DNA of 28,867 bases from a virus. Lineage: Duplodnaviria; Heunggongvirae; Uroviricota; Caudoviricetes. This document shows positions 1,533 to 24,922 of the stretch, in pieces (the stretch's first letter is position 1; every line of letters begins with the position of its first letter). The notes under the pieces were generated by a model that saw only the letters and a list, made by a program, of their open reading frames with translations, did no database searches and was not told the DNA's origin. Both the position numbers and the translations under genes were made by a program. The stretch is taken from IMG/VR virus record IMGVR_UViG_2660238462_000003; one strand, written 5' to 3'.

Positions 1533-1593
1533 TTCTGAAACTCCTAATCATCGGTGTGTTTCAGTATACACAAAAAAAGAAATACAAAAAGCC

Positions 1594-2511: not shown

Positions 2512-2528
2512 GTCGAGGAATAAATAAT

Positions 2529-4579: not shown

Positions 4580-4589
4580 TTTTTTGTAA

Positions 4590-4815: not shown

Positions 4816-4864
4816 GGGGGAGGCACAACTAAAAACTTTTTAAACGAGGGGGGGGTGAAAATAA

Positions 4865-5179
4865 ATGCGCATACATAAAAATCACTTAATAAACATGCCA
4901 GCCGAAAACATGAATCAGGGGCGACAAATGACCAAAATTCGCAGAGACAGAACACAGGCAAAATATAAAGCGTTAGACATGACAGAGCTTTCCTTAAAGG
5001 TGGCAATCAAAGCGATAGACCACCACACACGGGCAGGATACGCGAAGGAACATCCCGACCTGATAAGCGCATTCATGACCACAGCAGCGGCAAACTTTGC
5101 CACGCTGACAGAACGGGAGATTGCCGAAGCGGAACAGGTGACAACCATCAATGTTAAAACCGGAGAGCAGACAGCATGA
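4865..5179 (+). CDS. Hypothetical protein (104 aa; alternative start at 4919)
   Basis: ORF with stop overlapping SSB start; purine-rich SD-like sequence upstream of both candidate starts; G8 tract immediately upstream. Confidence 0.4.
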   Translation: MRIHKNHLINMPAENMNQGRQMTKIRRDRTQAKYKALDMTELSLKVAIKAIDHHTRAGYAKEHPDLISAFMTTAAANFATLTEREIAEAEQVTTINVKTGEQTA

Positions 5180-5625
5180 CAGCACAGATAGCGGCTTACG
5201 GGCGGCTGGTGGCTGACCCGCAGTTAAAGACCACCAGCAAAGGGACACAAATGGCGATGGCGAGTATGGCGGTTCCCCTGCCGTGCAGCCAGGCAGATGA
5301 CGGAACGGCGACGATGTGGTTATCCGTCCTGGCGTTTGGCAGACAGGCCGACGCACTGGCAAAACACCACAAAGGCGAACTGGTGAGCGTGGCGGGTAAC
5401 ATGCAGGTAAGCCAGTGGACAGGCCAGAACGGCGAAACGCGGCGGGGCTGGCAGGTTATCGCAGACAGCGTAATCAGTGCGCGAACGGCGCGACCGGGCG
5501 GCAAAAAAGGCCAACAGGGGCAGGCTACTGACGAACTGAACAGAGCAAAACAACAGGCAGATCAGCAAGGAAGCCAGCCACCAGTGGGAGATAATGAGCA
5601 ATGGGGAGATGATATCCCGTTTTAA
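5176..5625 (+). CDS. Single-stranded DNA-binding protein (SSB-like, divergent)
   Basis: 149 aa; OB-fold-like N-terminus alignable to E. coli SSB, Q/G-rich linker, C-terminal acidic tail ending DDIPF. Confidence 0.75.
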   Translation: MTAQIAAYGRLVADPQLKTTSKGTQMAMASMAVPLPCSQADDGTATMWLSVLAFGRQADALAKHHKGELVSVAGNMQVSQWTGQNGETRRGWQVIADSVISARTARPGGKKGQQGQATDELNRAKQQADQQGSQPPVGDNEQWGDDIPF

Positions 5626-5642
5626 ATATTGCCAATAAAAAA

Positions 5643-5667
5643 GGCCGGAAAAAATAAATTTTCCGGC
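5643..5667 (+). terminator. Stem-loop between ssb-like and capsid genes (possible attenuator)
   Basis: ggccggaaaa-aataaa-ttttccggc inverted repeat; no T-run. Confidence 0.3.
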
Positions 5668-5841
5668 ATGCTACATAAATCCCGACCAAAGGGAGTGAAG
5701 ATATTAACACTAATTGTCCGCACTGAAGTTGTCACCCCAAAACTTTATACAACATTGCACTCGGTTGCATGTGTTCGCATGACAAATATCGGTGGTAGCA
5801 TATATCCACAATTATTTTTAATGAATGCAAAGAGGATGCGT

Positions 5842-6882
5842 ATGGTTGATTTATATTCGCCTACTCAGCTTGTACAGGTGGTTAATGCTGTAGATGTACA
5901 AAAACAACTAAATGCGTTGTTTACCAGTTTGTTTTTTACTCGCTCGGTAATGTTTGAATCGCGCGATATTATTCTTGATACAATCGACGATCCAAATATC
6001 CCAATTGCAGCGTTTTGTTCTCCTATGGTGGGTAGTAAAGTTTCACGTGACGAAGGGTACGAATCAAAAACAATTCGTCCAGGCTATATGAAGCCGAAAA
6101 GCAGCATTGATCCAAATAAGTTAGCTGTGCGCCCTGCTGGTGTATCACCTGAGCAATACAATGCTTTTGGGGCACGTAATATTAAAGTTAAACAGGCGAT
6201 TGTAAATCAGGCTAAAGCTATTCGTGCACGTATTGAATGGCTTGCTGTTCAGGCAATCACAACGGGGAAAAATATCATTGAGGGCGATGGTATTGAACGT
6301 TATGAGCTGGACTGGAATATAAAACCACAAAATATCATCACTCAGTCTGGCGGTACTGAGTGGTCAGGTAAGGATAAAGAAACTTTTGATCCAAATGATG
6401 ATATTGAGAGCTACGCAGAATTTAGTGAGGGCGTCACTAATATCATCATTATGGGTGGTAATGTATGGAAGAAATACCGTTCATTCAGAGCGATAAAAGA
6501 GGCTTTGGATACCCGTCGTGGTTCTAATTCCGAACTGGAAACGGCCCTTAAAGACCTTGGTGATTCGGTGAGTTTTAAAGGGTATATGGGCGATGTTGCG
6601 ATTGTTGTTTACAGCGGGCGTTATACCGACGAGGACGGAACAGAAAAACATTTCCTTGATCCTGATTTGATGGTGCTTGGCAATACGGCTCTTCAGGGGA
6701 TTGTCGCCTATGGCGGTATTCAGGATCCGGAGCTAATCCGAATGGGGCTGACTAAAGCCGAACTTGCACCGAAAAACTATATTGTGCCTGGTGATCCGGC
6801 TATTGAATATGTGCAGACACATTCAGCACCACAGCCAATACCGGCCCGCATCAATCGTTTTGTTACCGTTCGCATTGGCTAA
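5842..6882 (+). CDS. Major capsid protein, lambda gpE family
   Basis: Shared blocks with lambda gpE as recalled: NITQSGGTEWS, DTRRGSNSELETA, GDVAIVVYSG, MVLGNT, PGY.KPK; start chosen at ATG 5842 (SD GAGG 6 nt upstream; ORF opens at 5629); about 347 aa vs 341 for gpE. Confidence 0.85.
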   Translation: MVDLYSPTQLVQVVNAVDVQKQLNALFTSLFFTRSVMFESRDIILDTIDDPNIPIAAFCSPMVGSKVSRDEGYESKTIRPGYMKPKSSIDPNKLAVRPAGVSPEQYNAFGARNIKVKQAIVNQAKAIRARIEWLAVQAITTGKNIIEGDGIERYELDWNIKPQNIITQSGGTEWSGKDKETFDPNDDIESYAEFSEGVTNIIIMGGNVWKKYRSFRAIKEALDTRRGSNSELETALKDLGDSVSFKGYMGDVAIVVYSGRYTDEDGTEKHFLDPDLMVLGNTALQGIVAYGGIQDPELIRMGLTKAELAPKNYIVPGDPAIEYVQTHSAPQPIPARINRFVTVRIG

Positions 6883-6891
6883 GGGGGAGCA

Positions 6892-7233
6892 ATGGCTACT
6901 CATTACACTGAACTCATGGCTGGCACTGAAGCACTGGTGACTACGCTGGGGATATTTTCAGCTAATAAAGGGGTAATTCCTGCATTTACGCCACTGATGC
7001 AGGAAGATGCAACAGGTGCACTGGTGGTATGGGATGGTTCGAGCGTAGGTAAAGCGGTTTATGTTTCCGCTGTACAAATCGACACAGCGAAAAAAACACA
7101 GGCACAGGTTTATAAGACAGGTGTTTTAAATGTTGATGCTCTGAACTGGCCTGAGTCTGTAAAAGAACTGTCGGCAAAGGTTGCCGCGTTTGTTGGCTCA
7201 GGTATTTCTGTTCAGCCGCTGGCTCGTGTGTAA
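6892..7233 (+). CDS. Head decoration protein, lambda gpD family
   Basis: 113 aa; PAFTPLMQEDATGALVVWDGSSVGKAV and WPE...AFVGSGISV align with lambda gpD; strong SD AAGGGGGAG. Confidence 0.7.
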   Translation: MATHYTELMAGTEALVTTLGIFSANKGVIPAFTPLMQEDATGALVVWDGSSVGKAVYVSAVQIDTAKKTQAQVYKTGVLNVDALNWPESVKELSAKVAAFVGSGISVQPLARV

Positions 7234-7244
7234 AGGGGGATACA

Positions 7245-7628
7245 ATGCAGAATCATTACAATGACCTTAAGCCAATTGCCGAAATGATGTATCCGGATCC
7301 AGCAGTAGAGGAATTAAAGGCTATTGCTGACAAAATGCGTTTAAGTGAACGCCTTGTTGATATGAATCAGGTGATGGAACTTACTACCCTTAGCCGTCGC
7401 ACATTGCTAAACCTTGAGGCTAGTGGAGAGTTCCCGGAGCGTGTGCAGGTTACGGAAGGGCGTAAGGCCTGGTATTTAAGTGAAGTGATCGACTGGATAA
7501 ACAATATTCCTCGATCTTCTGAATATTGCCGCGTACCTGTCCCAAAAAAGCCAGATGCGGCGCTATGCCTCAAGATTGAGCGTGTACGTCGCAATGCACG
7601 GGATGGTCGCTATAAGTTGATTGGTTGA
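7245..7628 (+). CDS. AlpA-like winged-HTH DNA-binding protein (second copy) immediately upstream of cos
   Basis: 127 aa; MNQVMELTTLSRRTLLNLEASGEFPERVQV...AWYLSEVIDWI matches AlpA/Xis-like HTH; strong SD AAGGGGGA. Confidence 0.6.
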   Translation: MQNHYNDLKPIAEMMYPDPAVEELKAIADKMRLSERLVDMNQVMELTTLSRRTLLNLEASGEFPERVQVTEGRKAWYLSEVIDWINNIPRSSEYCRVPVPKKPDAALCLKIERVRRNARDGRYKLIG

Positions 7629-7650
7629 TGAAATTAGGGCCCGTTCTGGC

Positions 7651-7830
7651 TGGCGGGTCCTTTCCGGCGATCCGGTAGGCTACGGGGCGGCGACCTCGCG
7701 GGTTTTCGCTATTTATGAGCCTTTTTCGGGTGCTGGTGGTGGTTTTGTTGTTCGCTCTATCTCTATGAATAAAAAGGAAAAGATAAAGCCAATACACCAA
7801 CCTGAAACATTACTTAAGTGGGGATATTGA
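7651..7830 (+). other. Lambda-type cos site (cosQ - cosN - cosB)
   Basis: 7685-7696 GGGCGGCGACCT equals the lambda cohesive end; following CGCGGGTTTTCGCTATTTATGA matches the lambda left end; preceding GGGTCCTTTCCGGCGATCCGGTAGGCTACG closely matches the lambda right end (cosQ); downstream cosB region diverges. Confidence 0.8.
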
Positions 7831-8300
7831 TGAAATCGCACCTGATGAACAAAAAAAACATGGCGCAAAGCTGCCGTGTAAGTGCGACAGCGTTCGACAA
7901 GTGGGGAGTGACTCCCGTTGAACGTAAAGGCCGCGAGGCGTTTTATGATGTTGCCAGCGTAATAGACAATCGGGTTAGCAATGCAATTAACCAGATTACA
8001 GACGACAAAGGCGAGATTGATGATGATGAACTCCTACGAGTCAGGATCAGATTGCTGACAGCACAGGCAGAGGCGCAGGAGCTTAAAAACGAGCGCGAAC
8101 GCGGCGACGTTATTGATACAGCGTTTTGTATATACGTGCTTTCAAAATTGGCGAGTCAGATTTCTTCAATCATGGACAGCCTGCCGCTTGCCATGACAAG
8201 GAAGTTTCCCGACATGAAGCCGTCTATGCTGGATGGACTGAAAAAGAAGTTATCAGAGCCTGTAACGCATGCGCAAAACTTGACGAAAACATACCGCTGA
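7830..8300 (+). CDS. Terminase small subunit, lambda Nu1 family (in-frame part; C-terminal domain continues in -1 frame to 8371)
   Basis: RLLTAQAEAQELKNERERGDVIDTAFCIYVLSKLASQISSIMDSLPLAMTRKFPDMK aligns with lambda Nu1; SD GGGGA 5 nt before ATG 7830; -1 frame 8246-8371 encodes EVIRACNACAKLDENIPLMLSDYLMETAG matching the Nu1 C-terminus. Confidence 0.8.
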   Translation: MKSHLMNKKNMAQSCRVSATAFDKWGVTPVERKGREAFYDVASVIDNRVSNAINQITDDKGEIDDDELLRVRIRLLTAQAEAQELKNERERGDVIDTAFCIYVLSKLASQISSIMDSLPLAMTRKFPDMKPSMLDGLKKKLSEPVTHAQNLTKTYR

Positions 8301-8382
8301 TGCTGTCCGATTATCTGATGGAAACTGCCGGAAACGTACCGGATAAGTTGCAGCCGAATAAAGATAAGTAACGTAGTACGCT

Positions 8383-8664
8383 ATGACTGAATCCGAAATA
8401 CTGCGATTAATCCGCCGTGCTTGTGGAATCAGCAAGCAGCATGACGAACAGGCCACGCAGCCGGACAGCGTGACCGCAGATAATTATGTGCGTGTAGTGG
8501 CTGAGGTGATGCGCCGTGACGGTATTGAGCTTAACGGCGTGGATATGCGCAACATACGAACAAGAGTCCTTGAGTTGCTGGCATATCGTCGCCGTTCTCA
8601 ACAACGGAGGGAGAGCGCGAAAAATACTTACCAGTGGAAGAAGCCGGAACGATTGCGGCGGTAA
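8383..8664 (+). CDS. Hypothetical basic protein (93 aa)
   Basis: ORF directly after terS; Arg-rich C-terminus; weak SD; no recognisable family. Confidence 0.35.
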   Translation: MTESEILRLIRRACGISKQHDEQATQPDSVTADNYVRVVAEVMRRDGIELNGVDMRNIRTRVLELLAYRRRSQQRRESAKNTYQWKKPERLRR

Positions 8665-8679
8665 CTTGCTGATATTCCC

Positions 8680-9060
8680 GATAACGCAAAATTGCGCTGG
8701 CTGACTTGTTGCATTGCAAAAAGTTAAGCAGGAAGGCACGGCCTGTAAGATGGGATGCAGTAAGTAGTTCAAGGCTACCTTGTGCTGGCACGCACAGTTA
8801 AGCCGTCGGTGCTGGATATCCCCCACTGGGGGAAAAGCTGGCTACATCCCTCACATCTGAGGACTGATAACGCGACATTGCGCTGGCTGGCAAAGTGCAA
8901 AATTGCACGATGGCCTAACCCATTGATTATTTCGAAAACCTGCAATGCAGGAAATCGGGGAAGTAAGCCTAAGCTATTGATTGTTTCGAAAACCCCCATT
9001 GGGGGATGTCGGGAAAGTAAGACTAACCCATTGATTCTTCCACAATCCTCAATTTGAGGA
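8680..9060. repeat. Non-coding region of short palindromes and degenerate direct repeats
   Basis: Direct repeat gataacgc(a/g)a(a/c)attgcgctggctg at 8680 and 8866; palindromes cgcaaaattgcg, ttgcattgcaa, cccccactggggg, gtgcaaaattgcac, cctgcaatgcagg, cccccattggggg, cctcaatttgagg; three roughly 55-bp units each starting (c/t)cattgatt(n)tt(t/c)c. Confidence 0.5.
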
Positions 9061-11432: not shown

Positions 11433-12392
11433 TTAATTCACCATCAGTCTTAAAGCCAGTTCTTCCGGATAGGGATCGAAGTAATTCTGTGTAAGCAAGT
11501 AATCATTAGGATACTCACCCAGATAATGCTTCAGCAGAGTCAACGGCGCAAGAAGAGGCAATGTGCCAGAACGATAGTTAAGTATAACCTCGCTCAACTC
11601 TTTACGCTGGCGTGTACTTAAGTAGTTACTAAAATACCCCTGTATATGCATCAGCACATTCGTGTGATTTTTACGTGATGCAGGTTTTATGAGAATCGCC
11701 ATCAGCTTATCACGATACACCTCAAAGAATGATTCAAGGTCCGCCCACTCGTGTATTGCAGCCACAAATGGTCCCATATCTTTATAGCCTGCCTGACTAT
11801 GCGCCAACAACTGAAGCTTATAACGACTATGAAAAGCTAATAACTCTCTTCTTGATAATTTCTCCTTGTAAAGGTGATTGAGCTCATGCAAAGCAAAAAC
11901 TCTTTCAACAAAATTCTCACGAAGCACTGGATCATGTAATCGCCCATCCTCTTCAACCGGTAGCCAAGAAAACTTTTCCATCAAAGTGCTCGTAAATAGT
12001 CCCACTCCATCTTTACGACCTCGATTACCATTTTCATCATAGACACGCACGCGCTCCATGCCACAGCTGGGAGATTTAGCACAAACCACAAACCCCGATA
12101 CATCCTTTAATTTGTCCATATAAGAACGACTAAACTCTGTCATTCTCTCTGTCACATCCTCATTCTGGTCGTGGCTGAAACACATCCGTATATTTCCTTG
12201 CGTCGAGCGCACAAGACGTAGAGCAGGACGCGGAACTGGCAGCCCTATAGCCATTTCCGGACATACTGGTCTGAATGTTACCCATTCCACTAATTTGTCC
12301 ATTAAAAAGTCAGCTCTTTTGTGACCACCATCAAAACGAACAGCAGAACCGGCCAAACAACCGCTGATTCCAATCACAGGTTTTTTTATCAT
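11433..12392 (-). CDS. DUF523/DUF1722 (YbgA-like) family protein
   Basis: 319 aa; strong SD GGGGGAGGA; N-terminal Cys-containing DUF523-like region plus C-terminal DUF1722-like region (from memory of family features). Confidence 0.55.
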   Translation of the reverse strand: MIKKPVIGISGCLAGSAVRFDGGHKRADFLMDKLVEWVTFRPVCPEMAIGLPVPRPALRLVRSTQGNIRMCFSHDQNEDVTERMTEFSRSYMDKLKDVSGFVVCAKSPSCGMERVRVYDENGNRGRKDGVGLFTSTLMEKFSWLPVEEDGRLHDPVLRENFVERVFALHELNHLYKEKLSRRELLAFHSRYKLQLLAHSQAGYKDMGPFVAAIHEWADLESFFEVYRDKLMAILIKPASRKNHTNVLMHIQGYFSNYLSTRQRKELSEVILNYRSGTLPLLAPLTLLKHYLGEYPNDYLLTQNYFDPYPEELALRLMVN

Positions 12393-12584
12393 ATCCTCCC
12401 CCTTGACTAATTCATTAACAGATAAACTGTGTAGTGCACGGAATAAATTGCCTTTCTGGCGTCATCACTGACAATTTTTCTGTTATGGACTATTCCTAAT
12501 ATAGTATAAAAGTTCTTTAAGTGATTGGTCGTAATCATCTATCTTTCATACTTACCCTCAACTATCAAAAGTACAGGATTTATT

Positions 12585-13109
12585 ATGAAGTTATGGCCTG
12601 TGTTGACTGGCATTGCACTCTCTTTCACTCTTATAGCATGTAAGGCCCCGACACCACCTAAAGGTGTGCAGCCGATTACAAATTTTGACGCCAACCGCTA
12701 TCTCGGAAAATGGTATGAAATAGCTCGCCTCGAGAACCGGTTCGAACGTGGTCTGGAACAGGTCAGCGCTACTTATGGAAAACGGAACGACGGAGGGATT
12801 CGTGTACTTAACCGTGGATACGATCCAACGAAAAATAAATGGAGCGAGAGCGAAGGTAAAGCATACTTTACTGGAGATACTAAAACTGCAGCGTTGAAGG
12901 TTTCGTTTTTTGGCCCCTTCTATGGTGGCTATAATGTAATCAAACTGGATGATGAGTATAAGTATGCTCTTGTCAGTGGTCCGAACAGAGAATACCTATG
13001 GATTCTGGCAAGGACCCCAACTATTCCAGATAAAGTAAAAGCAGACTATGTGCGAACCGCTCAAAAGCTGGGATTCAATGTCAATGAATTATTATGGGTT
13101 AAACAATAA
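12585..13109 (+). CDS. blc: Outer membrane lipoprotein Blc (bacterial lipocalin)
   Basis: Lipobox LIAC; NFDANRYLGKWYEIARLENRFERGLE...KVSFFGPFYGGYNVI...YLWILARTPTI closely matches E. coli Blc; SD AGGA 6 nt upstream. Confidence 0.85.
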   Translation: MKLWPVLTGIALSFTLIACKAPTPPKGVQPITNFDANRYLGKWYEIARLENRFERGLEQVSATYGKRNDGGIRVLNRGYDPTKNKWSESEGKAYFTGDTKTAALKVSFFGPFYGGYNVIKLDDEYKYALVSGPNREYLWILARTPTIPDKVKADYVRTAQKLGFNVNELLWVKQ

Positions 13110-15133: not shown

Positions 15134-15408
15134 GCTTCACCTCCGCAGAGGTCAAACGTTGGATGCAAGATATCGCAGGTGCATTTCTGCATCTGTGACT
15201 GGTTGAAAGGTGTTCTGATTGTCGTTTGCACTTTGAGTCCCCTCAAAGCGCAGAAGTCACCGGAGTTGTTCAGGCTCCGATGACATGATTATGGCGAGTT
15301 GATTATGATGAATCAATAGGTTCTTATGTCAAATGAACACTAGATCCAAAGGAGGGTAACAATTATCATAGCCAATGAGATTAATCTCATTTTTAATAAG
15401 GAAATTTC

Positions 15409-16827
15409 ATGAAATATTTCTCAACTGGTTTTTATGTTTCAAACTCCACATCTCTAGCTGAGATCTTTAATGAATGTTTTTCTTGGGTAAACGACTCACC
15501 ACATACAACTTTTATTCCAGCACAATTAGTATGTGATTATAAAAGCGAGGAGTACTTCATAGAGTCTAAAAATGAAAGAATTGATATAATAACTTATAAA
15601 AACAAAGATACTAGTTTAGGCTGTTTTAGGTATTCGAAAATATCTGAGCCACACAAATGGGTAACAGATATTTCAATTAATAAAAATCTCAAAACTGATA
15701 CCATGTGGATTCAGGTGGAATCTAGCGTTGTAAGCCAAGATGCAGCTTATCTAGCCCCGCAACCTAAGAAACCATTAGTTGTTATGAGATTGATTGATAA
15801 ATTTTCTGGTGGTCTTGATGATATTTTCAAGGTGTCAGTCGAACCTCATTCCTTAGATGATACTGATGAACATTTAAATATAGCAGCTAAAGTTATAAAT
15901 GGTGAAACTGACAACAGACTACCAATAATATACGTTAGCTCCAAGTATTTTTTTAATGAACATGCTCACAATATCATCCCAGAACGCCTTGCAAGAAAGG
16001 TATGCGGATTAGCACATGTATTAATTGAGCCTAGCAATAGACTATTTTCTATTAAGCTAAAAAATGAGACAAATGCTAAAAATGCCTATGCTGGTGCTGT
16101 TGGTATCTATTGGCCACGGGGTCAAAATATCAGTTTTTATCGCCGTGGTGAGAAAACCGCAAAAGAATTTGAAGATGAGTTATTTGATGATGTTGTAAGA
16201 GCTACGACTACAATGGCTCCTGTCTCAGATAGTGGATGGAGTGAGATACAAACCAGAAAAACGAAAGACTCTATTAACTCACTCAAAGAAAGAGGAGAAT
16301 ACACACGCGAACTGATGGCGCTTTACGAAGCCGATAATGTTGCGAAAGATGACCAAATAGAAGATCTTAAGCATAAGATCTCCTCTTTAGAGCACAGAGT
16401 ACGCACTCTTCAATCACAAGCTTCAGCCCAAGGAAGCATTGTGCTTAATGCTGGTGAAGAGACTGATTTTTTTGATGGAGAAATCAAAAATATAATTATT
16501 GACGCACTAAAAACTGCCATAAAAAATAAAAATGAATTTGGTAGAAGCTACCATATCTTATCATCCCTAATTGCCAATAATGAATACAATAAAGAAACCG
16601 AGAGTCGCCGCCAATTACTTAAAAGGACTTTAACAGGTTACAGAAGCATGGATAGCGCAACACAAAGAAATTTAAAGGACTTAGGTTTCAGTGCGTCAAG
16701 CGATGGAAAACACTGGAAGTTAACATATAATGAAGACCCTCGATATTCCTATATTTTACCTAAAACAGGAAGTGACCACAGAGGTTCTTTAAATGCTATC
16801 TCGGATATAGCAAACATTATTTTCTAA
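15409..16827 (+). CDS. Hypothetical 472-aa protein, AT-rich moron between nin region and ren
   Basis: Long ORF with SD AAGGAAA; much lower GC than flanking genes; central coiled-coil-like segment (EDLKHKISSLEHRVRTLQSQ); no recognised motif. Confidence 0.55.
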   Translation: MKYFSTGFYVSNSTSLAEIFNECFSWVNDSPHTTFIPAQLVCDYKSEEYFIESKNERIDIITYKNKDTSLGCFRYSKISEPHKWVTDISINKNLKTDTMWIQVESSVVSQDAAYLAPQPKKPLVVMRLIDKFSGGLDDIFKVSVEPHSLDDTDEHLNIAAKVINGETDNRLPIIYVSSKYFFNEHAHNIIPERLARKVCGLAHVLIEPSNRLFSIKLKNETNAKNAYAGAVGIYWPRGQNISFYRRGEKTAKEFEDELFDDVVRATTTMAPVSDSGWSEIQTRKTKDSINSLKERGEYTRELMALYEADNVAKDDQIEDLKHKISSLEHRVRTLQSQASAQGSIVLNAGEETDFFDGEIKNIIIDALKTAIKNKNEFGRSYHILSSLIANNEYNKETESRRQLLKRTLTGYRSMDSATQRNLKDLGFSASSDGKHWKLTYNEDPRYSYILPKTGSDHRGSLNAISDIANIIF

Positions 16828-16835
16828 TAAATTTC

Positions 16836-16861
16836 AATAGCACTCACAAATGAGTGCTATT
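16836..16861. terminator. Hairpin between convergent moron genes
   Basis: aatagcactca-caaa-tgagtgctatt perfect 11-bp stem. Confidence 0.4.
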
Positions 16862-16878
16862 GTTGCCACTGAATTACT

Positions 16879-17133
16879 CTATTTAAATTCAACTTTTATC
16901 CCTTTGTTTAGCAGGGCATCAGAAACTGCCTTTTTTGTAACATTTATCCCTGCAAGCAATGCTTTATGCATTGGTCCCTTAAAAATTTCTACTTCTTCTT
17001 CAGTGAGTTTAGGCAATGTAATATAAATAACATCTTTCATCTGCTTGTTTTTATAGCATGAGCTTCTTGTGTGCTTACAATCGATATTTTCTTTATTTCC
17101 CAAAACATCATCCCCTTTATAATTCAGTTCCAC
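16879..17133 (-). CDS. Hypothetical small protein (up to 84 aa; non-ATG start likely, or 53 aa from internal ATG), AT-rich
   Basis: ORF convergent with the 472-aa gene; first codon at 17133 is GTG; weak SD. Confidence 0.3.
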   Translation of the reverse strand: MELNYKGDDVLGNKENIDCKHTRSSCYKNKQMKDVIYITLPKLTEEEVEIFKGPMHKALLAGINVTKKAVSDALLNKGIKVEFK

Positions 17134-17197
17134 ACATCAATTATTTAGTTATCACGAATGTCGTAAAACTAAAATTAGTAACAATAATTGCTCATAC

Positions 17198-17485
17198 CTA
17201 CTCTCTTCCATATAAAGCCAACACCCGCTTCATCGCGGCACTTTGACGACACTCCTTAAAAATCAGATTCGTGCTCACCTTTCCTTCCCGTTCTTCTCTG
17301 GTAGCGAACCGGTAATACACCGTTCGCCAGACCTTACCATCAACGACCAGGATTCCTGACCGCGCCATTTTAGCCGCAGCCTGATTTATGCTGGTTACGG
17401 TTGCGCCTGTTACCGCGGCAACGTCCTGCGCACAGAAGTTCTTATGAGTCCCCAGGTAATGAATAATTGCCTCTTTGCCCGTCAT
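17198..17485 (-). CDS. ren: Ren protein
   Basis: MTGKEAIIHYLGTH...VTSINQAAAKMAR...GKVWRTVYYRFATREEREGK... matches lambda Ren as recalled; immediately downstream of P. Confidence 0.8.
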   Translation of the reverse strand: MTGKEAIIHYLGTHKNFCAQDVAAVTGATVTSINQAAAKMARSGILVVDGKVWRTVYYRFATREEREGKVSTNLIFKECRQSAAMKRVLALYGRE

Positions 17486-18183
17486 ACACTTGCTCCTTTC
17501 AGCCCAAACTTCGCTTTGATTTCTGCGATCTTCGCCAGAGCCTGAACACGATTAAGCGGTCTCCCGCCCATGACAGGAAGTTGTTTTACTGGTTCAGGTA
17601 TCGCCTCACCACGGTTAATTCGCGCTGTCATACAGGCCAGTTCATCGGCAGCCTTGCGCCGTAATTCCGCATCAGTCAGCGCATTGGCCCGCATGTTCTG
17701 ATACAGGTTGGTAACCAGCCAGTAGTGCGCGTTTGATTTCCACGGATAAGACTCTGCATCTGGATACAGGCCACGTTTCCGGCAATACTCGTAAACCATA
17801 TCAACCAGCTCGCTGGCGTTTGGCAGCCCGGCGGTAACGGATGCTTCTTCCCGGCACCAGGCAACAAACTGCCCGGGTGATGGCAGGAATGGTCGATTCT
17901 GCCGACGGGCTACGCGCATTCCTGCGTTAACCTGTTCCATCGTGGTGATCCCGTTTTCCCGGAAAGCCAGAACCCACTGGCGGCGGATTTCGTTCAGTTC
18001 GTTCTGGTCCCGGTTAGCCAGGCTCGCCGGGAAAGTTGCCAGTAACTGGCTGAACACACCATTGATGATCTGCGCTACCTGTTGTACCTGCGGCTTTTCG
18101 TCGTACTGTTCCGGCATGTTGTTGGCGATCCGGCGCATCTGCTCACGGTCAAAGTTAACCATCTGTGCGGCGATGTTTTTCAT
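17482..18183 (-). CDS. P: Replication protein P (DnaB loader)
   Basis: 233 aa essentially identical to lambda P as recalled (MKNIAAQMVNFDREQMRRIANNMPEQYDEKPQVQQVAQIINGVF...). Confidence 0.9.
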   Translation of the reverse strand: MKNIAAQMVNFDREQMRRIANNMPEQYDEKPQVQQVAQIINGVFSQLLATFPASLANRDQNELNEIRRQWVLAFRENGITTMEQVNAGMRVARRQNRPFLPSPGQFVAWCREEASVTAGLPNASELVDMVYEYCRKRGLYPDAESYPWKSNAHYWLVTNLYQNMRANALTDAELRRKAADELACMTARINRGEAIPEPVKQLPVMGGRPLNRVQALAKIAEIKAKFGLKGASV

Positions 18184-19109
18184 AAATCCACCCCGTAAAT
18201 CCAGTCAGTGTTTGTCAGGTCGAGTTTTGATTTTCCGGCTATCACGCCAGCCTGTTGCTTGTTACGGTTGATTTCGAGTTGGGTCCACTTGTCGCGGAGT
18301 TTGGCCGGACTTAGCACGTTACCGGACCAGAAGTTGTCCTGGCATGCCCAGCGGAACAGCACGCACATGTCGCGGTGGTTACGGCCGTCACGTTCACGCA
18401 TCAGGCGGATATCGTTAGCCCACCCTGCAAAATTCGGTTTTCTGGCTGATGGCGCGATGGTCTTCACCATGTCAAACATCCACTCTGCGGCGGTCAGGTC
18501 TTCTGCTGTCCCCCACCTGCTGCCGCTCTGAATTGCAGCATCTGGTTTCTCCACAGGAAGATCGTTTTCTGGTTGGTCAGAGGATTCGCCAGAATTCTCG
18601 GACGAAAAAGGTTTTATATTGTCTTTTGTTAGTTTGTATTTTGTGTTTACCTGATTCGGGTAAGTGCCTTTACCTGATTTGGGTAAACTTTTCTTACCTG
18701 ATTCAGGTAAATTTACCTCTTTCAGGTAAACTTTATTTTTCTTACCTGATTCGGGTAATGTTGACCATTCACTGACCACATTATTAATGCCGATATTCCG
18801 CCCGCTCTGAATAAAAATCCCACGCTTTACCAGAACACTTTTTGCAGCAGAACACTTGTGCGGCAATATCCCGGTCAACTCGGAAAGTTGCTCGTTGCTC
18901 ACCCAATCCAGTTTTTTATTAAAGCCATATGTTTTGCGCATGACAGCCAGGAAGACCAGAAGCTGGTGCTGTGTTAATCCGGCCAGCATCACAGCTTCCA
19001 GCAACTCATTTGCAATGCGCGTATAACCATCATCGAGATCTGCCACGCGCGGCTCCTTTTGTGCCGCATCCGGCACTGGAAAATTGAATATCTCAGCAGT
19101 GTTTGCCAT
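18180..19109 (-). CDS. O: Replication initiator O (lambda-like C-terminal domain, different N-terminal DNA-binding domain)
   Basis: C-terminal ...YSSENSGESSDQPENDL...GTAEDLTAAEWMFDMVKTIAPSARKPNFAGWANDIRLMRERDGRNHRDMCVLFRWACQDNFWSGNVLSPAKLRDKWTQLEINRNKQQAG... matches lambda O; start at 19109 (SD GGGAGGA) rather than 19199. Confidence 0.85.
   Translation of the reverse strand: MANTAEIFNFPVPDAAQKEPRVADLDDGYTRIANELLEAVMLAGLTQHQLLVFLAVMRKTYGFNKKLDWVSNEQLSELTGILPHKCSAAKSVLVKRGIFIQSGRNIGINNVVSEWSTLPESGKKNKVYLKEVNLPESGKKSLPKSGKGTYPNQVNTKYKLTKDNIKPFSSENSGESSDQPENDLPVEKPDAAIQSGSRWGTAEDLTAAEWMFDMVKTIAPSARKPNFAGWANDIRLMRERDGRNHRDMCVLFRWACQDNFWSGNVLSPAKLRDKWTQLEINRNKQQAGVIAGKSKLDLTNTDWIYGVDL
18647..18758. 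repeat. ori iterons inside O gene
   Basis: Five 17-bp iterons TTACCTGATTCGGGTAA (variants at 18647, 18670, 18695, 18714, 18742) with an AT-rich stretch alongside. Confidence 0.75.
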
Positions 19110-19195
19110 AATTCCTCCCGCAATGAGTGTGTTACGATTTGCACCTGAAAGTCGGTTCTGTTCCCGCAGACCGACTTTCGCCATTTCTGAACCTG

Positions 19196-19735
19196 TCATA
19201 TTGCCCCCAGCATGGTGGTCACCATCGCCATTAATGGACCAGCCAGATCCGGGTCCACACGAAACATCGACACAATACCTTCACTCATTTCCTTCAGTTT
19301 CTGGTGGCGTGGTGCGTTGAGAATGACAGCCTGTTTTGCCTCACTGAGTTCCTTTTCCATTTCAGCCAACCGAGTCATGAAGCTATCCTGCTCAACCAGG
19401 TAACCGCGATATTCCAGCGGTAGTACCGCCAGAATTGCCGGGGTCAGTTCACGCACGTTATTTCGGTATTTTTCAGAATCGAATTTGTTATCGAGGAAGC
19501 GGAACAGCTTCTGGCGTGCACGGCTGACATCATCAGGGAAATCGATGGTGCCGTCGCCCTGCTCCCGATACTCATTCACAATGAGTGCGGCAACGACATC
19601 CTGATTATCTACAGCCGACCAGGCGCGGACGGCATCACGGATTTTTTCGTGGCCTGGAGCTTGTTTTGTTTGAGAACGATTTATCACCGCAGTCGGAATA
19701 AATCCGCTAGTCTGTTGGTATGTAAGTGGTTGCAT
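19196..19735 (-). CDS. YdaT-like protein in the cII position
   Basis: 179 aa; SD AAGGAG; segment PAILAVLPLEYRGYLVEQDSFMTRLAEMEKEL resembles YdaT-family proteins (recalled, uncertain). Confidence 0.45.
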   Translation of the reverse strand: MQPLTYQQTSGFIPTAVINRSQTKQAPGHEKIRDAVRAWSAVDNQDVVAALIVNEYREQGDGTIDFPDDVSRARQKLFRFLDNKFDSEKYRNNVRELTPAILAVLPLEYRGYLVEQDSFMTRLAEMEKELSEAKQAVILNAPRHQKLKEMSEGIVSMFRVDPDLAGPLMAMVTTMLGAI

Positions 19736-19804
19736 AATTGACTCCTTTAGTTTGAATTGACTGTTAAGTTGATTGCTTATTGTTAAAGAGCGTGAAATGG
19801 AAAT

Positions 19805-20035
19805 TTAAGCTGCGTTCTTTTCGGTGTGTGGAAACAACTTCGGAAGATCCGGGCGAATCTGGTATGCCTTCACAACTCCACCAGTAGCCGTAACAATGCT
19901 GCCGACATGTTCAGGGGATACCTTTGCTTTGTTGTGAAGCCACTTATAGACGGCCTGCTGTGAAACTTCGCAGGCATCGCCTAGTTTCTTTTGTGAACCA
20001 ACGATATTGATCGCTGTTTTGATTGCTGGGTTCAT
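19805..20035 (-). CDS. Cro-like HTH regulator
   Basis: 76 aa; HTH GSQKKLGDACEVSQQAVYKW; divergent from cI across operator region; SD GGAGG. Confidence 0.65.
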   Translation of the reverse strand: MNPAIKTAINIVGSQKKLGDACEVSQQAVYKWLHNKAKVSPEHVGSIVTATGGVVKAYQIRPDLPKLFPHTEKNAA

Positions 20036-20139
20036 AACAACCTCCGTGGTTAATCCGAATAAAGATTAAAACTATGGTTGTTTTTAGTCAACAACCATTT
20101 TCGTTTGATGAAATAAAACCTTGGTTGTACATTTGATCT
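20036..20139. promoter_or_regulatory. Immunity-region operators and divergent promoters (OR / pR / pRM-like)
   Basis: Inverted repeat actatggttgtt / aacaaccat (20070-20100) plus half-site ccttggttgtac between cro-like and cI. Confidence 0.6.
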
Positions 20140-20829
20140 ATGAAAACAACACTCTCAGAAAGACTTAAAGAAGCCAGATTAGCGCGAGGCCTTACACAAA
20201 AGGCGCTTGGGGATTTGGTCGGGGTTAGCCAGGCTGCTATTCAGAAAATCGAAACAGGGAAAGCTAACCAAACAACTAAAATCGTGGAGATCGCGAACGC
20301 TTTGGGTGTGCGCGCAGAATGGTTATCTTCTGGCGTTGGAAATATGTCAGACAGTACAGTGCAACCAATACAATCAACTGTCAGCCATTCCAAATACTTC
20401 AAAATTGACGTTCTTGATATAGAAGTCAGTGCCGGGCCAGGTGTAATCAACCGTGAGTTTGTAGAAGTTCTACGCTCGGTTGAGTACTCGTTTGACGATG
20501 CTCGTCACATGTTCGATGGCAGGAAGGCGGAAAATATCCGCATCATTAACGTGCGAGGTGACAGCATGTCAGGGACGATCGAACCAGGTGACCTGCTGTT
20601 CGTTGATATCACTGTTAAATCTTTCGACGGTGATGGCATCTATGCGTTTCTGTACGACGACACTGCCCATGTAAAACGTCTTCAAATGATGAAGGATAAG
20701 CTGCTGGTTATCTCTGATAACAAGAGCTACTCGCCGTGGGACCCGATCGAGAAAGACGAGATGAACCGGGTGTTCATATTCGGTAAGGTCATTGGAAGCA
20801 TGCCGCAGACGTACAGGAAGCATGGTTAA
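20140..20829 (+). CDS. cI: CI-type repressor (XRE HTH + S24 LexA-like peptidase domain)
   Basis: N-terminal HTH LTQKALGDLVGVSQAAIQKIE; C-terminal ...RGDSMSGTIEPGDLLFVD...KRL with Ser/Lys dyad typical of S24 autoproteolysis. Confidence 0.85.
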   Translation: MKTTLSERLKEARLARGLTQKALGDLVGVSQAAIQKIETGKANQTTKIVEIANALGVRAEWLSSGVGNMSDSTVQPIQSTVSHSKYFKIDVLDIEVSAGPGVINREFVEVLRSVEYSFDDARHMFDGRKAENIRIINVRGDSMSGTIEPGDLLFVDITVKSFDGDGIYAFLYDDTAHVKRLQMMKDKLLVISDNKSYSPWDPIEKDEMNRVFIFGKVIGSMPQTYRKHG

Positions 20830-21058
20830 TTTATCTACGACTTAAGGGAGCGAAGGTTAAGGTTTATACCACTCGGATTAGATATTGCACTAAATTCTCT
20901 ATAAGAACGCCAAATCTGTTTGCATATTTCAGTAAATATTCTCGTTGTTAGCTGAGATTTGTTGCTACTGTCAGCAAAATGTCCCCCTATCTCGTAGCGG
21001 TTTTTATTTCGAATCATTATGTTAAGATGTTTCTGATTATAATGAATGGAAACATAAA

Positions 21059-21439
21059 ATGAGAAAAATCCTAATCGCTGCCATGATGGCATCTGTATTG
21101 GCTGGGTGTGCTTCTTCAGGCAACCAGCAACTCAAAAATGAAACTGAAATTAGTGTCCAGTCTAAACTTCAGGAAGGTAAAACAACCAAGAATGAGGTTA
21201 AATCTTACTTTGGTTCTCCTGATGCTGTTTCATATACTGACAGTGGAAACGAGATCTGGAAGTACGCCTTTGCAAAAGTAAAAGTTAATGGCACCACTTT
21301 TATTCCATTCTATGGATTATTCCATAATGGAACGAACGGTACGAAAAAAGAACTTACTATTCTTTTTAACGATGACACGATTAAGAAATACACAATGTCA
21401 GAAACCCAAATAAACTCGAAATCAGGTTGGGCTGACTGA
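21059..21439 (+). CDS. Lipoprotein moron with BamE/SmpA_OmlA-like pattern, in the rex position downstream of cI
   Basis: Signal peptide with lipobox LAGC; KNEVKSYFGSPDAV...GNEIWKYAF...LTILFNDDTIKKY pattern resembles BamE-like fold; AT-rich; terminator follows. Confidence 0.6.
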   Translation: MRKILIAAMMASVLAGCASSGNQQLKNETEISVQSKLQEGKTTKNEVKSYFGSPDAVSYTDSGNEIWKYAFAKVKVNGTTFIPFYGLFHNGTNGTKKELTILFNDDTIKKYTMSETQINSKSGWAD

Positions 21440-21447
21440 TAATCATA

Positions 21448-21475
21448 CCCGGCAACCGCGCCGGGTTTTCTTTTC
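21448..21475 (+). terminator. Rho-independent terminator after lipoprotein gene
   Basis: cccggc-aaccgc-gccggg followed by ttttctttt. Confidence 0.6.
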
Positions 21476-21584
21476 CTCCCCCTCATAACTCATACCGTCC
21501 AAAAAACCACCACACCTCACTTCAGTTATCGCTATGCGATGCAAGTCACAAAATAAATCCATCCTAAATACAACCAGTTATATT

Positions 21585-21650
21585 TAAAACAACCGACAAA
21601 ACAACTTTTGTTGTTGACGATAAAACAACTATAGTTTTAAATTAAATTCA
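21585..21650 (+). promoter_or_regulatory. pL/OL-like promoter-operator
   Basis: TTGACG (21614-21619), 17-bp spacer, TTAAAT (21637-21642); operator-like aacaactatagtttt resembles OR half-sites; aacaacttttgttgtt palindrome. Confidence 0.4.
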
Positions 21651-21716
21651 TCGCAACGACACAACGATACGGTAACCACCTGTTTCACCGTTGCGATGAC
21701 CGCTTAGATCCGCAGT

Positions 21717-22127
21717 TTGAATTTCAGCAGGCTTCGGGGAGTGCGAGGGGTGAAACGGACGCGTGAACGTCGGTGTGACCAGCTGAAATCAACACAACAC
21801 TTTATACCTCAGTCGCTTCAACGAGGCGGCTTAGTTATGACAACCGGCGGCCATCCACCGCCTGAATACGCGCAGAAGTCTCTATATGTTCAGCAGCCCA
21901 GCTTACGGGCAGGAGTTTTTATGGTTCATCAACATTACGGAACGCAGACCGTTAATCGCGGTGCGGTCATGCCAGGAATGCTGGTCAAACACAAAGATGG
22001 TACCTGGACTGCATCAGCTAATTTACGCGGACGGCTTTATCTGCATCGCGGCATCGAGCGCACTTATACCCGTGATTTGCTCGTAGAAGTTTTTCTCGAC
22101 GGACGCGGTAACGGCCTGAATCACTAA
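21717..22127 (+). CDS. Possible N-like antiterminator or early-left protein (start codon uncertain: TTG 21717, GTG 21741 or ATG 21837)
   Basis: Only long ORF between pL-like promoter and gam; Arg-rich N-terminal stretch GVKRTRERR reminiscent of N-family arginine-rich motifs; no ATG at ORF start. Confidence 0.3.
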
Positions 22128-22202
22128 TCCCCTTTCCTGTTTTCCTAATCAGCCTGGCATTTCGCGGGCGATATTTTCACAGCCATTTTCAGGAGTTCAG
22201 CC

Positions 22203-22499
22203 ATGAACGCTTATTACATTCAGGATCGTCTTGAGGCTCAGAGCTGGGCGCGTCACTACCAGCAGATCGCCCGTGAAGAGAAAGAGGCAGAACTGGCAGA
22301 CGACATGGAAAAAGGCCTGCCCCAGCACCTGTTTGAATCGCTATGCATCGATCATTTGCAACGCCACGGGGTCAGCAAAAAAGCCATTACCCGTGCGTTT
22401 GATGACGATGTTGAGTTTCAGGAGCGCATGGCAGAACACATCCGGTACATGGTTGAAACCATTGCTCACCACCAGGTTGATATTGATTCAGAGGTATAA
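22203..22499 (+). CDS. gam: Gam (RecBCD inhibitor), short-form length
   Basis: 98 aa [56 protein letters not shown]... matches lambda Gam; in-frame stop at 22146-22148 upstream. Confidence 0.9.
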
Positions 22500-22504
22500 A
22501 ACGG

Positions 22505-23290
22505 ATGAGTACAGCACTCGCAACGCTGGCTGGGAAGCTGGCTGAACGAGTCGGCATGGATTCTGTCGACCCACAGGAACTGATCACCACTCTTCGCCAG
22601 ACGGCATTTAAAGGTGATGCCAGCGATGCGCAGTTCATCGCATTGCTGATCGTCGCCAACCAGTACGGTCTTAATCCGTGGACGAAAGAAATTTACGCCT
22701 TCCCTGATAAGCAGAACGGCATCGTTCCGGTGGTGGGCGTTGATGGCTGGTCCCGCATCATCAACGAAAACCAGCAGTTTGACGGCATGGACTTTGAACA
22801 GGACAACGAATCCTGCACATGCCGGATTTACCGCAAAGACCGCAATCATCCGATCTGCGTTACCGAGTGGATGGATGAATGCCGCCGCGAACCATTCAAA
22901 ACCCGCGAAGGCAGAGAAATCACGGGGCCGTGGCAGTCGCATCCCAAACGGATGTTACGGCATAAAGCCATGATTCAGTGTGCCCGTCTGGCCTTCGGAT
23001 TTGCTGGTATCTATGACAAGGATGAAGCCGAGCGCATTGTCGAAAATACTGCATACACTGCAGAACGTCAGCCGGAACGCGACATCACTCCGGTTAACGA
23101 TGAAACCATGCAGGAGATTAACACTCTGCTGATCGCCCTGGATAAAACATGGGATGACGACTTATTGCCGCTCTGTTCCCAGATATTTCGCCGCGACATT
23201 CGCGCATCGTCAGAACTGACACAGGCCGAAGCAGTGAAAGCTCTTGGATTCCTTAAACAGAAAGCCACTGAGCAGAAGGTGGCAGCATGA
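22505..23290 (+). CDS. bet: Bet (RecT-family ssDNA annealing protein)
   Basis: 261 aa essentially identical to lambda Bet as recalled. Confidence 0.95.
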
Positions 23291-23967
23291 CACCGGACAT
23301 TATCCTGCAGCGTACCGGGATCGACGTGAGAGTTGTCGAACAGGGGGATGATGCATGGCACAAATTACGGCTCGGCGTCATCACCGCTTCAGAAGTTCAC
23401 AACGTGATAGCAAAGCCCCGCTCAGGAAAGAAGTGGCCTGACATGAAAATGTCCTACTTCCACACCCTGCTGGCTGAGGTTTGCACCGGTGTGGCTCCGG
23501 AAGTTAATGCTAAGGCGCTGGCCTGGGGAAAACAGTACGAGAACGACGCCAGAACCCTGTTTGAATTCACTTCCGGCGTGAATATTACTGAATCCCCGAT
23601 CATCTATCGCGACGAAAATATGCGCACCGCCTGCTCTCCCGATGGTTTATGCAGTGACGGCAACGGCCTTGAACTGAAATGCCCGTTTACCTCCCGGGAT
23701 TTCATGAAATTCCGGCTCGGTGGTTTCGAGGCAATAAAATCGGCTTACATGGCCCAGGTGCAGTACAGCATGTGGGTGACGCGAAAAGATGCCTGGTACT
23801 TTGCCAACTATGACCCGCGCATGAAGCGTGAAGGCCTGCATTACGTCGTGGTTGAGCGGAATGAAAAGTACATGGCGAGTTTTGACGAGATGGTGCCGGA
23901 GTTCATCGAAAAAATGGACGAGGCACTGGCTGAAATTGGTTTTGTATATGGGGAGCAATGGCAATGA
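23287..23967 (+). CDS. exo: Exo (lambda exonuclease)
   Basis: 226 aa essentially identical to lambda Exo as recalled. Confidence 0.95.
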
Positions 23968-24146
23968 AGCATCCTCACGATAATATCCGGGTAGGCGCGA
24001 TCACTTTCGTCTACTCCGTTACAAAGCGAGGCTGGGTATTTCCCGGCCTTTCTGTTATCCGAAATCCGCTGAAAGCCCAGCGGCTGGCTGAGGAGATAAA
24101 TAATAAACGGGGAGCTGTATGCACAAAGCATCTCCCGTTGAATTAA
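23958..24146 (+). CDS. Lambda orf61-like small protein
   Basis: 61 aa ORF directly after exo, position and size match lambda orf61. Confidence 0.55.
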
Positions 24147-24310
24147 GAACGAGTATCGAGATGGCACATAGCCTCGCTCAAATTGGAGTCAGGTTTGTGC
24201 CAATACCAGTAGAAACAGACGAAGAATTTCATACGTTAGCCGCATCCCTTTCACAAAAGCTGGAAATGATGGTGGCGAAAGCAGAAGCAGATGAGAGAGA
24301 CCAGGTATGA
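24119..24310 (+). CDS. Lambda orf63-like small protein
   Basis: 63 aa ORF, position and size match lambda orf63. Confidence 0.55.
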   Translation: MHKASPVELRTSIEMAHSLAQIGVRFVPIPVETDEEFHTLAASLSQKLEMMVAKAEADERDQV

Positions 24311-24386
24311 CAACCACTGAATGCATTTTTCTGGCAGCGGGCTTCATATTCTGTGTGCTTATGCTTGCCGACATGGGGCTTGTTCA

Positions 24387-24602
24387 ATGACACCTCAGCA
24401 AGAAAACGCCCTTCGCAGCATTGCCCGTCAGGCTAATTCTGAAATCAAAAAAGCCAGACAGCAGTTTCCGGATAAAAACGTCGATGACATTTGCCGTAGC
24501 GTACTAAAGAAGCACCGCGAAACGGTAACGCTGATGGGATTCACACCGACTCATTTAAGCCTGGCGATCGGCATGTTGAACGGCGTCTTTAAGGAACGGT
24601 GA
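24387..24602 (+). CDS. Lambda orf60a-like small protein
   Basis: MTPQQENALRSIARQANSEIKKARQQFPDKNVDD...; start at internal ATG 24387 of ORF 24321..24602. Confidence 0.55.
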   Translation: MTPQQENALRSIARQANSEIKKARQQFPDKNVDDICRSVLKKHRETVTLMGFTPTHLSLAIGMLNGVFKER

Positions 24603-24700
24603 ACATGAAAAGCAAAATCATCAGGGAGCTACAGGCTCCTTTTTTATTATTCGCATTCACCCTCAAGCGTATTAACCAACAATTCAGGGATTAATGAAAG

Positions 24701-24922
24701 ATGGCAGACATAATTGATTCAGCATCAGAAATTGAAGAATTACAGCGCAACACAGCAATAAAAATGCGCCGCCTGAACCACCAGGCTATATCTGCCACTC
24801 ATTGTTGTGAGTGTGGCGATCCGATAGATGAACGAAGACGACTGGCCGTTCAGGGTTGTCGGACTTGTGCCAGTTGCCAGCAAGATCTGGAGCTTATCAG
24901 TAAACAGAGAGGTTCGAAGTGA
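24701..24922 (+). CDS. TraR/DksA-family C4 zinc-finger protein
   Basis: 73 aa with CCECGDPIDERRR...CRTCASCQ four-Cys motif. Confidence 0.7.
   Translation: MADIIDSASEIEELQRNTAIKMRRLNHQAISATHCCECGDPIDERRRLAVQGCRTCASCQQDLELISKQRGSK

Follow-up and report, generated by a model that had tools for sequence, protein, structure and literature searches.

The stretch of DNA described here, referred to as the window, is 28,867 nucleotides (nt) long and derives from a virus of the Caudoviricetes (IMG/VR virus record IMGVR_UViG_2660238462_000003). Its immunity region codes for a small lipoprotein of 126 amino acids (aa), and the setting, relatives and possible role of this gene are considered below. Window positions 17207–24880 are 98.8% identical to the lambda-like Escherichia phage PhiR26_1 (PV340555), whose record names E. 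coli K-12 MG1655 as host, and the remaining parts of the window are mosaic.

Organization of the immunity region

The features of the immunity region, all on the plus strand where a strand is given, are as follows.

20036–20105, no strand: OR-like operator cluster in the cro–cI interval, with three AACAAC-N4-GTTGTT-like sites at 20036, 20067 and 20090
20140–20829, plus strand: cI-type repressor with helix-turn-helix and S24 peptidase domains (phrog_4, 8.7e-73; CI-like phrog_6201)
20823–21446, plus strand: AT-rich cassette of ~624 bp, present here and absent from the same-immunity phage PhiR34_1
20830–21019, no strand: orphan AT-rich spacer with a weak hairpin at ~20985–20999 and a probably spurious antisense open reading frame (ORF) at 20835–21092
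21020–21028, plus strand: predicted extended -10 element, TGT-TAAGAT, invariant in a five-locus alignment
21029–21058, plus strand: conserved 5' leader with a Shine-Dalgarno-like GGAA at 21048–21051, its columns kept in E. coli, Salmonella and Citrobacter loci
21059–21439, plus strand: lipoprotein gene, a 126-aa ORF of the SEN1984 family (phrog_3135) with a predicted BamE (SmpA/OmlA) fold, identical to WP_001226568.1
21447–21475, plus strand: intrinsic terminator (7-bp GC stem at 21447–21466, loop and T-run), common to relatives that lack the cassette
21600–21643, plus strand: OL-like operators and a PL-like promoter (TTGACG-18-TAAATT)

The repressor is annotated as cI in PhiR26_1 and as 'S24 family peptidase' in RefSeq, and the genes divergent from it are cro (19805–20035) and a cII-like gene (phrog_163). 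The pattern search finds seven AACAAC-N4-GTTGTT-like sites in the window where 1.6 are expected, and those located past the terminator, at 21600 and 21624, overlap the PL-like promoter. The lipoprotein gene lies between cI and OL/PL and thus occupies the position of rexAB in lambda, as had been predicted from the sequence alone. The same original prediction placed the gene immediately downstream of cI on the same strand; strand and direction are as stated, but a 229-nt AT-rich spacer (20830–21058) intervenes. The terminator said to end the unit is borne out by a stem that starts seven nucleotides past the lipoprotein stop codon and is followed by a T-run, with a folding energy of -14 kcal/mol (z = -3.7) that none of 200 shuffled sequences reached.

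The likeness to lambda rexA–rexB includes the position downstream of cI on the same strand, ahead of the operon terminator and OL/PL, and the transcription logic, but the sequences are unrelated. The two rex genes together form an abortive-infection system out of a cytoplasmic protein and an inner-membrane protein, whereas a single small exported lipoprotein is predicted here.

The lipoprotein gene and its product

The ORF at 21059–21439 is the sole convincing gene in the interval 20830–21480. An antisense ORF at 20835–21092 was rejected as coding, with no PHROG match and no homologues beyond near-identical copies, and the 186-nt spacer is likewise regarded as non-coding. That the lipoprotein ORF is a true gene rather than a chance ORF is clear from its homologues, of which there are more than 200 close ones and 1332 cluster representatives (50% identity, E <= 1e-3, exhaustive search).

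The predicted protein begins with MRKILIAAMMASVLAGC and has a signal peptide, MRKILIAAMMASVLAG-C, with a positive n-region, a hydrophobic core and an L-A-G-C lipobox. The signal peptide comprises residues 1–16, and the predicted lipidated residue, Cys17 (codon at 21107–21109), is invariant across an alignment of 83 family sequences; the expectation of a 126-aa lipoprotein with a lipobox is thereby upheld. Cys17 is followed by alanine at +2 and serine at +3, with no Lol-avoidance aspartate, so that by the established +2 rule the lipoprotein is expected to be sorted to the outer membrane.

An AT-rich cassette in the cI operon

PhiR34_1 has the same immunity region with a cI gene about 95% identical, and lacks the lipoprotein gene. 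In the alignment of the two, homology ends at the last cI codons and resumes exactly at the terminator stem, which defines the cassette of ~624 bp. Its GC content is 0.36–0.37, compared with about 0.5 in both flanks. Since phages without the cassette have the same terminator, the cI operon probably possessed it ancestrally. The 186-nt spacer at the start of the cassette has no similarity to other loci except near-identical E. coli copies.

These features make it highly probable that the cassette is a lysogenic-conversion moron, placed between cI and the cI-operon terminator of a lambda-like prophage. Several of the hallmarks of morons in the Juhala/Hendrix sense are seen, namely presence or absence among related phages, deviant base composition and occurrence in three genomic slots (described below). 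Of the promoter and terminator that a moron typically brings with it, a conserved extended -10 motif is present; the terminator is strong, but is common to phages lacking the cassette.

Of 5426 complete E. coli genomes, 71 contain the 651-bp interval 20830–21480 at >= 99% identity, always in the chromosome. Two neighborhoods were inspected, and both correspond to DLP12-like prophages at argU. An IS1B element splits the match to this region in two in E. coli strain ET201 (NZ_CP100994.1).

In all, 87 loci with the gene were classified, drawn from viral contigs, phage records and Citrobacter genomes in addition to the window. About 90% of the mature lipoprotein is conserved across genera, with most changes in the signal peptide, and the ratio of nonsynonymous to synonymous substitution (dN/dS) is 0.02–0.10 where computable among phage copies, the synonymous sites being saturated. 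Such strong constraint speaks for a functional protein with a conserved partner, and against a fast-evolving arms-race interface. It is extremely improbable that the gene is merely hitch-hiking, or decaying, with no current function for the prophage; the lack of homologues for the E. coli cassette's orphan spacer and the genome with IS1 somewhere inside the 651-bp query region would fit that view, but the reading frame is intact at all 87 loci, the lipobox is invariant and a regulatory motif is conserved, in addition to the low dN/dS.

Expression signals

The predicted -10 element and the leader that follows it are the conserved parts of the region upstream of the lipoprotein gene. Among 43 non-redundant variants of the upstream region, 23 have the pattern TGnTAnnnT at a distance of 39–44 nt ahead of the ATG, with a chance expectation of about 7% per 70 nt. 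At loci that are not coupled to cI, an upstream terminator is followed by the conserved element, in which TGnTA(A/G)GAT keeps a constant spacing to the start codon, and in the Citrobacter loci the element is accompanied by a TTGACC -35 at 16-nt spacing. The window hairpin upstream of the -10 element is weak (-3 kcal/mol, no better than shuffles), too weak to terminate, so that read-through from cI is plausible as well. The original prediction from position, that the gene would be expressed in the lysogen, is well supported by comparison, as the cassette is inside the cI unit, the gene follows cI by 47–48 nt at 16 loci and an Arc/Mnt-type repressor at three others, and the -10 motif is conserved.

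Two further promoter assignments were set aside. A minus-strand promoter-like site at 21065–21036 lies in an AT-rich palindrome and is not conserved at other loci, and reading the conserved leader as a Sigma-E-type promoter gives a poor match by eye. Where the cI–lipoprotein spacer is 47–48 nt long (L032–L054 and others in our numbering of the loci), it contains a conserved 6-bp hairpin, AGCTTC-N7-GAAGCT, of -6.9 kcal/mol and with no T-run, which could be a processing or translational-control element.

A BamE-like fold in a separate family

The resemblance of the lipoprotein to BamE, noted originally from the pattern of the sequence, extends to formal searches and to the predicted structure. 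The Pfam BamE model (PF04355) matches it at E = 1.6e-4 and 21.8 bits, the gathering cut-off being 23.2 bits, and 69 of 83 relatives are matched at E <= 0.01, the best at 4e-9. An hhalign comparison with E. coli BamE gives a probability of 92% (E = 6e-7) at 24% identity; the BamE sequence used is consistent with the alignments to the PDB. Searched against PDB sequences, the family profile places BamE chains on top, weakly (E about 0.02–0.05), and the single lipoprotein gives only a spurious signal-peptide match. The alignment-based AlphaFold2 model has a mean predicted local distance difference test score of 81.5, with a confident core and a loop (residues 80–89) that is not confident, and shows two helices and a beta-sheet, a predicted fold superposable on BamE. 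In a Foldseek search of the PDB with this model, ranks 1–8, 10 and 13 are E. coli BamE chains from complexes of the beta-barrel assembly machine (BAM).

It is not, however, BamE itself. The gene is on a prophage cassette found in the 71 of 5426 complete E. coli genomes rather than at the chromosomal bamE locus, and its product coexists with true BamE; the initial idea of a BamE-like fold holds, and a place in BamE proper is not supported. The lipoprotein belongs to a separate paralogous family, the SEN1984 family or phrog_3135 ('unknown function'), whose profile is covered over its whole length by residues 1–124 (2.9e-48). Family motifs C17, G21-N22, G52-x-P54, W67-x-Y69, P83, F103 and G123 are invariant or fall in columns that are at least 90% conserved. 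As in BamE, there is a signal peptide with a lipobox cysteine, G21-N22 aligns with the QGN of BamE, and the GxP and WxY motifs are present in both. The family departs from BamE in its much shorter tether behind the lipid anchor and in a hydrophobic insertion of ~14 residues, FIPFYGLFHNGT, with Pro83 near-invariant; the mature domain also has a family-specific hydrophobic loop, FIPFYGLF. The mature domain is thus modeled as a short-tethered module of the BamE/SmpA-OmlA type. NCBIfam release 20 has no model for the family, giving only weak, signal-peptide-driven matches (Ag473, TrsH and similar), and a search for domain fusions among 10 longer family members found BamE-domain matches only, with no informative partner domain.

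In RefSeq the identical protein is named 'outer membrane protein assembly factor BamE' in most genomes, and one annotation, the newest among the matches listed, is labeled 'SEN1984 family lipoprotein'. The automated BamE label is misleading, and the protein is better read as a BamE-fold paralogue. SEN1984 of Salmonella Enteritidis has been predicted to be BamE-like by Phyre2 (PMC10655114) and sits in the excisable ROD21 island (PMC10655114, PMC3198454). The window protein is of the same family, and its identical E. coli counterpart bears the SEN1984 name in RefSeq, but the SEN1984 island is excisable and mobilisable, and the window gene is in a prophage immunity region. The family is already catalogued, and the predicted BamE-like fold of SEN1984 is already in print (PMC10655114); new here are the limits of the cassette, the recurrence of the gene in three slots, the predicted promoter element and the degree to which the protein is constrained.

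One explanation that follows the fold closely is that the lipoprotein is a mimic of BamE, docking on the host BAM at the BamA POTRA5/BamD site and changing outer-membrane protein assembly or the conformation of BamA. In lysogens it would be tethered very near the outer membrane and would occupy, or compete for, the BamE site, and the benefit could be that the beta-barrel proteins of the phage itself are assembled more readily or that receptors are displayed differently; as an outcome, phages dependent on BamA or on BAM-assembled receptors would be excluded, or the assembly of prophage outer-membrane proteins would be favored. The closest solved structures being BamE chains within BAM complexes, the motifs in common (G-N after the anchor, GxP and WxY), a very high conservation that fits binding to a highly conserved machine, and the three beta-barrel outer-membrane proteins (porin, Lom and omptin) also encoded by PhiR26_1 are all in keeping with this. 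We consider it unlikely nonetheless, given the low identity to BamE, the insertion and much shorter tether, and the presence in the hosts of true BamE, to which the lipoprotein is a separate paralogue. If true, no earlier example would exist of a virus that uses a subunit paralogue to reprogram the essential beta-barrel assembly machine.

Distribution and genomic locations

In Beta-, Gamma-, Zeta- and Alphaproteobacteria, Nitrospirae and others, homologues with 40–50% identity belong to the ordinary gene content of the chromosome, in contexts that include a position after the nuo operon, one inside an atp operon and one beside ksgA; no recurrent neighbor of the non-enteric homologues was seen among 80 loci from species-representative genomes, and the contexts vary. 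The Enterobacterales clade (about 63% identity or more) is mostly prophage-borne, with carriers in Escherichia, Salmonella, Citrobacter, Enterobacter, Klebsiella and Serratia and distant relatives in phages of Pseudomonas and Alteromonas. One Citrobacter variant accounts for 783 blocks of the contig collection. Only 18 of 50,697 isolated-phage records have a homologue, and no classical model phage is among the 18, which is probably why the family has escaped characterization.

The 87 loci fall into three recurrent slots. The first, occupied at 59 loci, is downstream of a cI-type repressor on the same strand, with one additional locus where the gene follows a Phage_CI_repr protein. In 16 of the slot-1 loci the ATG is 47–48 nt past the cI stop with no terminator between, and at others there are one or two intervening variable genes; in Salmonella phage S107 the gene is located between cI and N. 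The second slot, at three loci, is behind an Arc/Mnt-type repressor, each time opposite a divergent Bro-N antirepressor, an arrangement resembling that of P22 immI. The third, at 24 loci, is in the tail operon directly upstream of the tape-measure gene. Pseudomonas phage PP9W2 has a distant homologue that likewise directly precedes the tape-measure gene, and the one in phage Lodos adjoins the integrase.

The third slot, between a DUF6246 gene and the tape-measure gene of siphophage-like prophages of Klebsiella, Enterobacter and Serratia (L055–L086, L091 and L003), is a moron island in its own right. Its contents are interchangeable exported proteins or lipoproteins of at least five unrelated small families, with no Pfam match among those scanned, and it also carries KilA-N and Bro-N-type antirepressor-like genes. 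At most of the non-E. coli immunity-region loci (L002, L004–L007 and L032–L054) an ORF of phrog_3975 (65–80 aa, unknown function) on the opposite strand converges on the lipoprotein gene from about 30–250 nt downstream; it is absent from the window.

The contents of the slots bear on the idea that the lipoprotein is an orphan immunity protein against a periplasm-acting toxin (of a type VI secretion system, or contact-dependent or colicin-like), similar to BtiO and to immunity proteins of lipocone toxins. This is very unlikely, in that none of the three slots has a toxin gene next to the lipoprotein gene, and immunity proteins with a BamE fold are described as rapidly evolving whereas the lipoprotein is highly conserved.

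Possible functions

The slot before the tape-measure gene is that of HK97 gene 15, the founding moron, which codes for a YebO-derived inner-membrane superinfection-exclusion protein (PMC3594210). Like gp15, the lipoprotein gene is an envelope gene of chromosomal origin captured as a moron, and 24 of the 87 loci have it in the gp15 slot, between the tail assembly genes and the tape-measure gene; in a Serratia prophage it stands side by side with a gene of the YebO/gp15 family. The two have neither sequence nor fold in common, gp15 resides in the inner membrane and the lipoprotein is predicted to be in the outer membrane, and the window gene is in the immunity region rather than the tail operon.

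The small, receptor-blocking outer-membrane lipoproteins Cor (of phi80, N15 and HK022) and Llp (of T5), both phage-encoded, are proposed as the functional model, although neither has homology to the window lipoprotein. Cor is produced by lysogens, and Llp early in T5 infection. Cor excludes by acting on FhuA (PMC3594210), and Ltp, a further lipoprotein exclusion factor, targets the tape-measure protein according to a reference cited in PMC10883804.

We tentatively favor, as a possible role and by analogy, that the lipoprotein blocks superinfecting phages at the envelope. It is our best guess because of the company that the gene keeps (repressor operons, the gp15 slot and a gp15-like neighbor) and because of the lipoprotein precedents Cor, Llp and Ltp; the occupancy of the gp15 slot, by the gene itself, by its distant PP9W2 homologue and at other loci by alternative exported proteins or lipoproteins, is circumstantial support. 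In this scheme the gene would be transcribed in the lysogen, probably both through read-through of transcripts begun at the repressor promoter and from the conserved extended -10 promoter of the gene itself, and the product would be exported, lipidated at Cys17 and sorted to the inner leaflet of the outer membrane. There it would bind a conserved envelope component from the periplasmic side, either a beta-barrel receptor of the outer membrane or the tail or tape-measure apparatus of the arriving phage, and would keep superinfecting phages from adsorbing or from delivering their genomes, much as Cor, Llp and HK97 gp15 do, with an unrelated fold.

Several observations weigh against superinfection exclusion. 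PADLOC defense models match the lipoprotein with no family even at E <= 10, the sole match to a Cor PHROG is at E = 0.066 and covers the signal peptide only, and Cor, Llp and Ltp are absent among the fold matches of the lipoprotein model. The carriers have no single tail type, and include lambda-like phages, Rac-like prophages and phages whose tail modules are of the DUF6246/TMP_3 type. The extreme conservation of the mature protein is unlike that of arms-race proteins, and both the chromosomal homologues in many Proteobacteria and the family member in ROD21, a non-phage island, fit a general envelope role equally well. The BamE-likeness of SEN1984 is itself a prediction (PMC10655114), the promoter of the lipoprotein gene is recognized by consensus and conservation, and no functional study was found in the literature on phage-borne BamE-like or SmpA/OmlA moron proteins and on PhiR26_1.

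A general envelope role would be that of a host-fitness or virulence moron, in which the lipoprotein strengthens or remodels the lysogen envelope without excluding phages, with benefits such as stress tolerance, resistance to serum or antimicrobials, or colonization. Lambda Bor is the closest parallel, being a prophage-encoded outer-membrane lipoprotein and a conversion gene that is also found on the same phage type, but Bor, which confers serum resistance, is of an unrelated family and bor is near the lysis genes. Such a role gains from the housekeeping contexts of the chromosomal homologues across Proteobacteria, from the family member in the ROD21 pathogenicity island, from the strong purifying selection, which points to a conserved host partner, and from the other outer-membrane conversion genes (Bor, Lom, porin and omptin) of the same phage type. 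We regard it as somewhat unlikely, as no phenotype is reported, only about 1.3% of complete E. coli genomes carry the gene, and its recurrence beside lysogeny repressors and in the gp15 slot, although it fits, stays unexplained.

Other genes of the window and of PhiR26_1

PhiR26_1 encodes four more outer-membrane conversion genes, an OmpD/NmpC-like porin, Bor, Lom and an omptin (record positions 15616–16713, 18489–18782, 39522–40121 and 46781–47734), and together with the BamE-like lipoprotein the cargo of this phage type is unusually outer-membrane-directed. Elsewhere in the window there is a satellite-like gene block at 1–9000 on the plus strand, beside or inside the lambdoid late region and opposite in orientation to the late genes, which looks like a capsid-forming satellite of the phage-inducible chromosomal island type. 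Its genes and the other cargo of the window include the following.

315–893, plus strand: Bro-N protein, satellite-like block
2825–4579, plus strand: D5_N/DUF5906/Pox_D5 primase-helicase, satellite-like block
5629–6882, plus strand: Phage_cap_E major capsid protein, satellite-like block
7818–8300, plus strand: Nu1-like small terminase, satellite-like block
11433–12392, minus strand: 2-thiouracil desulfurase/DUF1722 protein, Q/lysis-proximal cargo
12525–13109, plus strand: Blc-like lipocalin, Q/lysis-proximal cargo
15409–16827, plus strand: 472-aa ORF with no Pfam match and a weak PADLOC match to the candidate system HEC-07 (1e-9)

The Blc-like lipocalin is a candidate for a further envelope-directed moron. 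The 472-aa ORF occupies the place of PD-lambda-1 in PhiR26_1, between ren and the nin region, and the window has no homology to PhiR26_1 over 15307–17206; the ren–nin interval is probably a hotspot of swappable defense genes.

Between the PL-like promoter (21614–21643) and kil (phrog_294, within 21717–22127) and gam there is no N-like antiterminator gene. There is instead a leader of ~280 nt (21644–21920) that opens with an 11-bp-stem hairpin (21648–21699) and might be a put-like, N-independent antitermination element; Rfam gives nothing for this leader, nor any match in a scan of the whole window, and the overall fold of the leader is non-significant (z = -1.2).

Implications

If the lipoprotein does act in superinfection exclusion, it would add a new and widespread family to the few envelope-level exclusion factors of Gram-negative prophages, and one whose fold normally serves the cell's own outer-membrane assembly machine. 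Such genes influence the range of phages able to infect clinical Enterobacterales, are relevant to phage therapy, and draw attention to conserved sites of the envelope at which a block from the periplasmic side is possible. Even with a role in host fitness, the recurrence is a clear comparative signal: lysogens appear to pay for keeping the gene, which is found downstream of lysogeny repressors of two unrelated kinds as well as in the classic moron slot of gp15.

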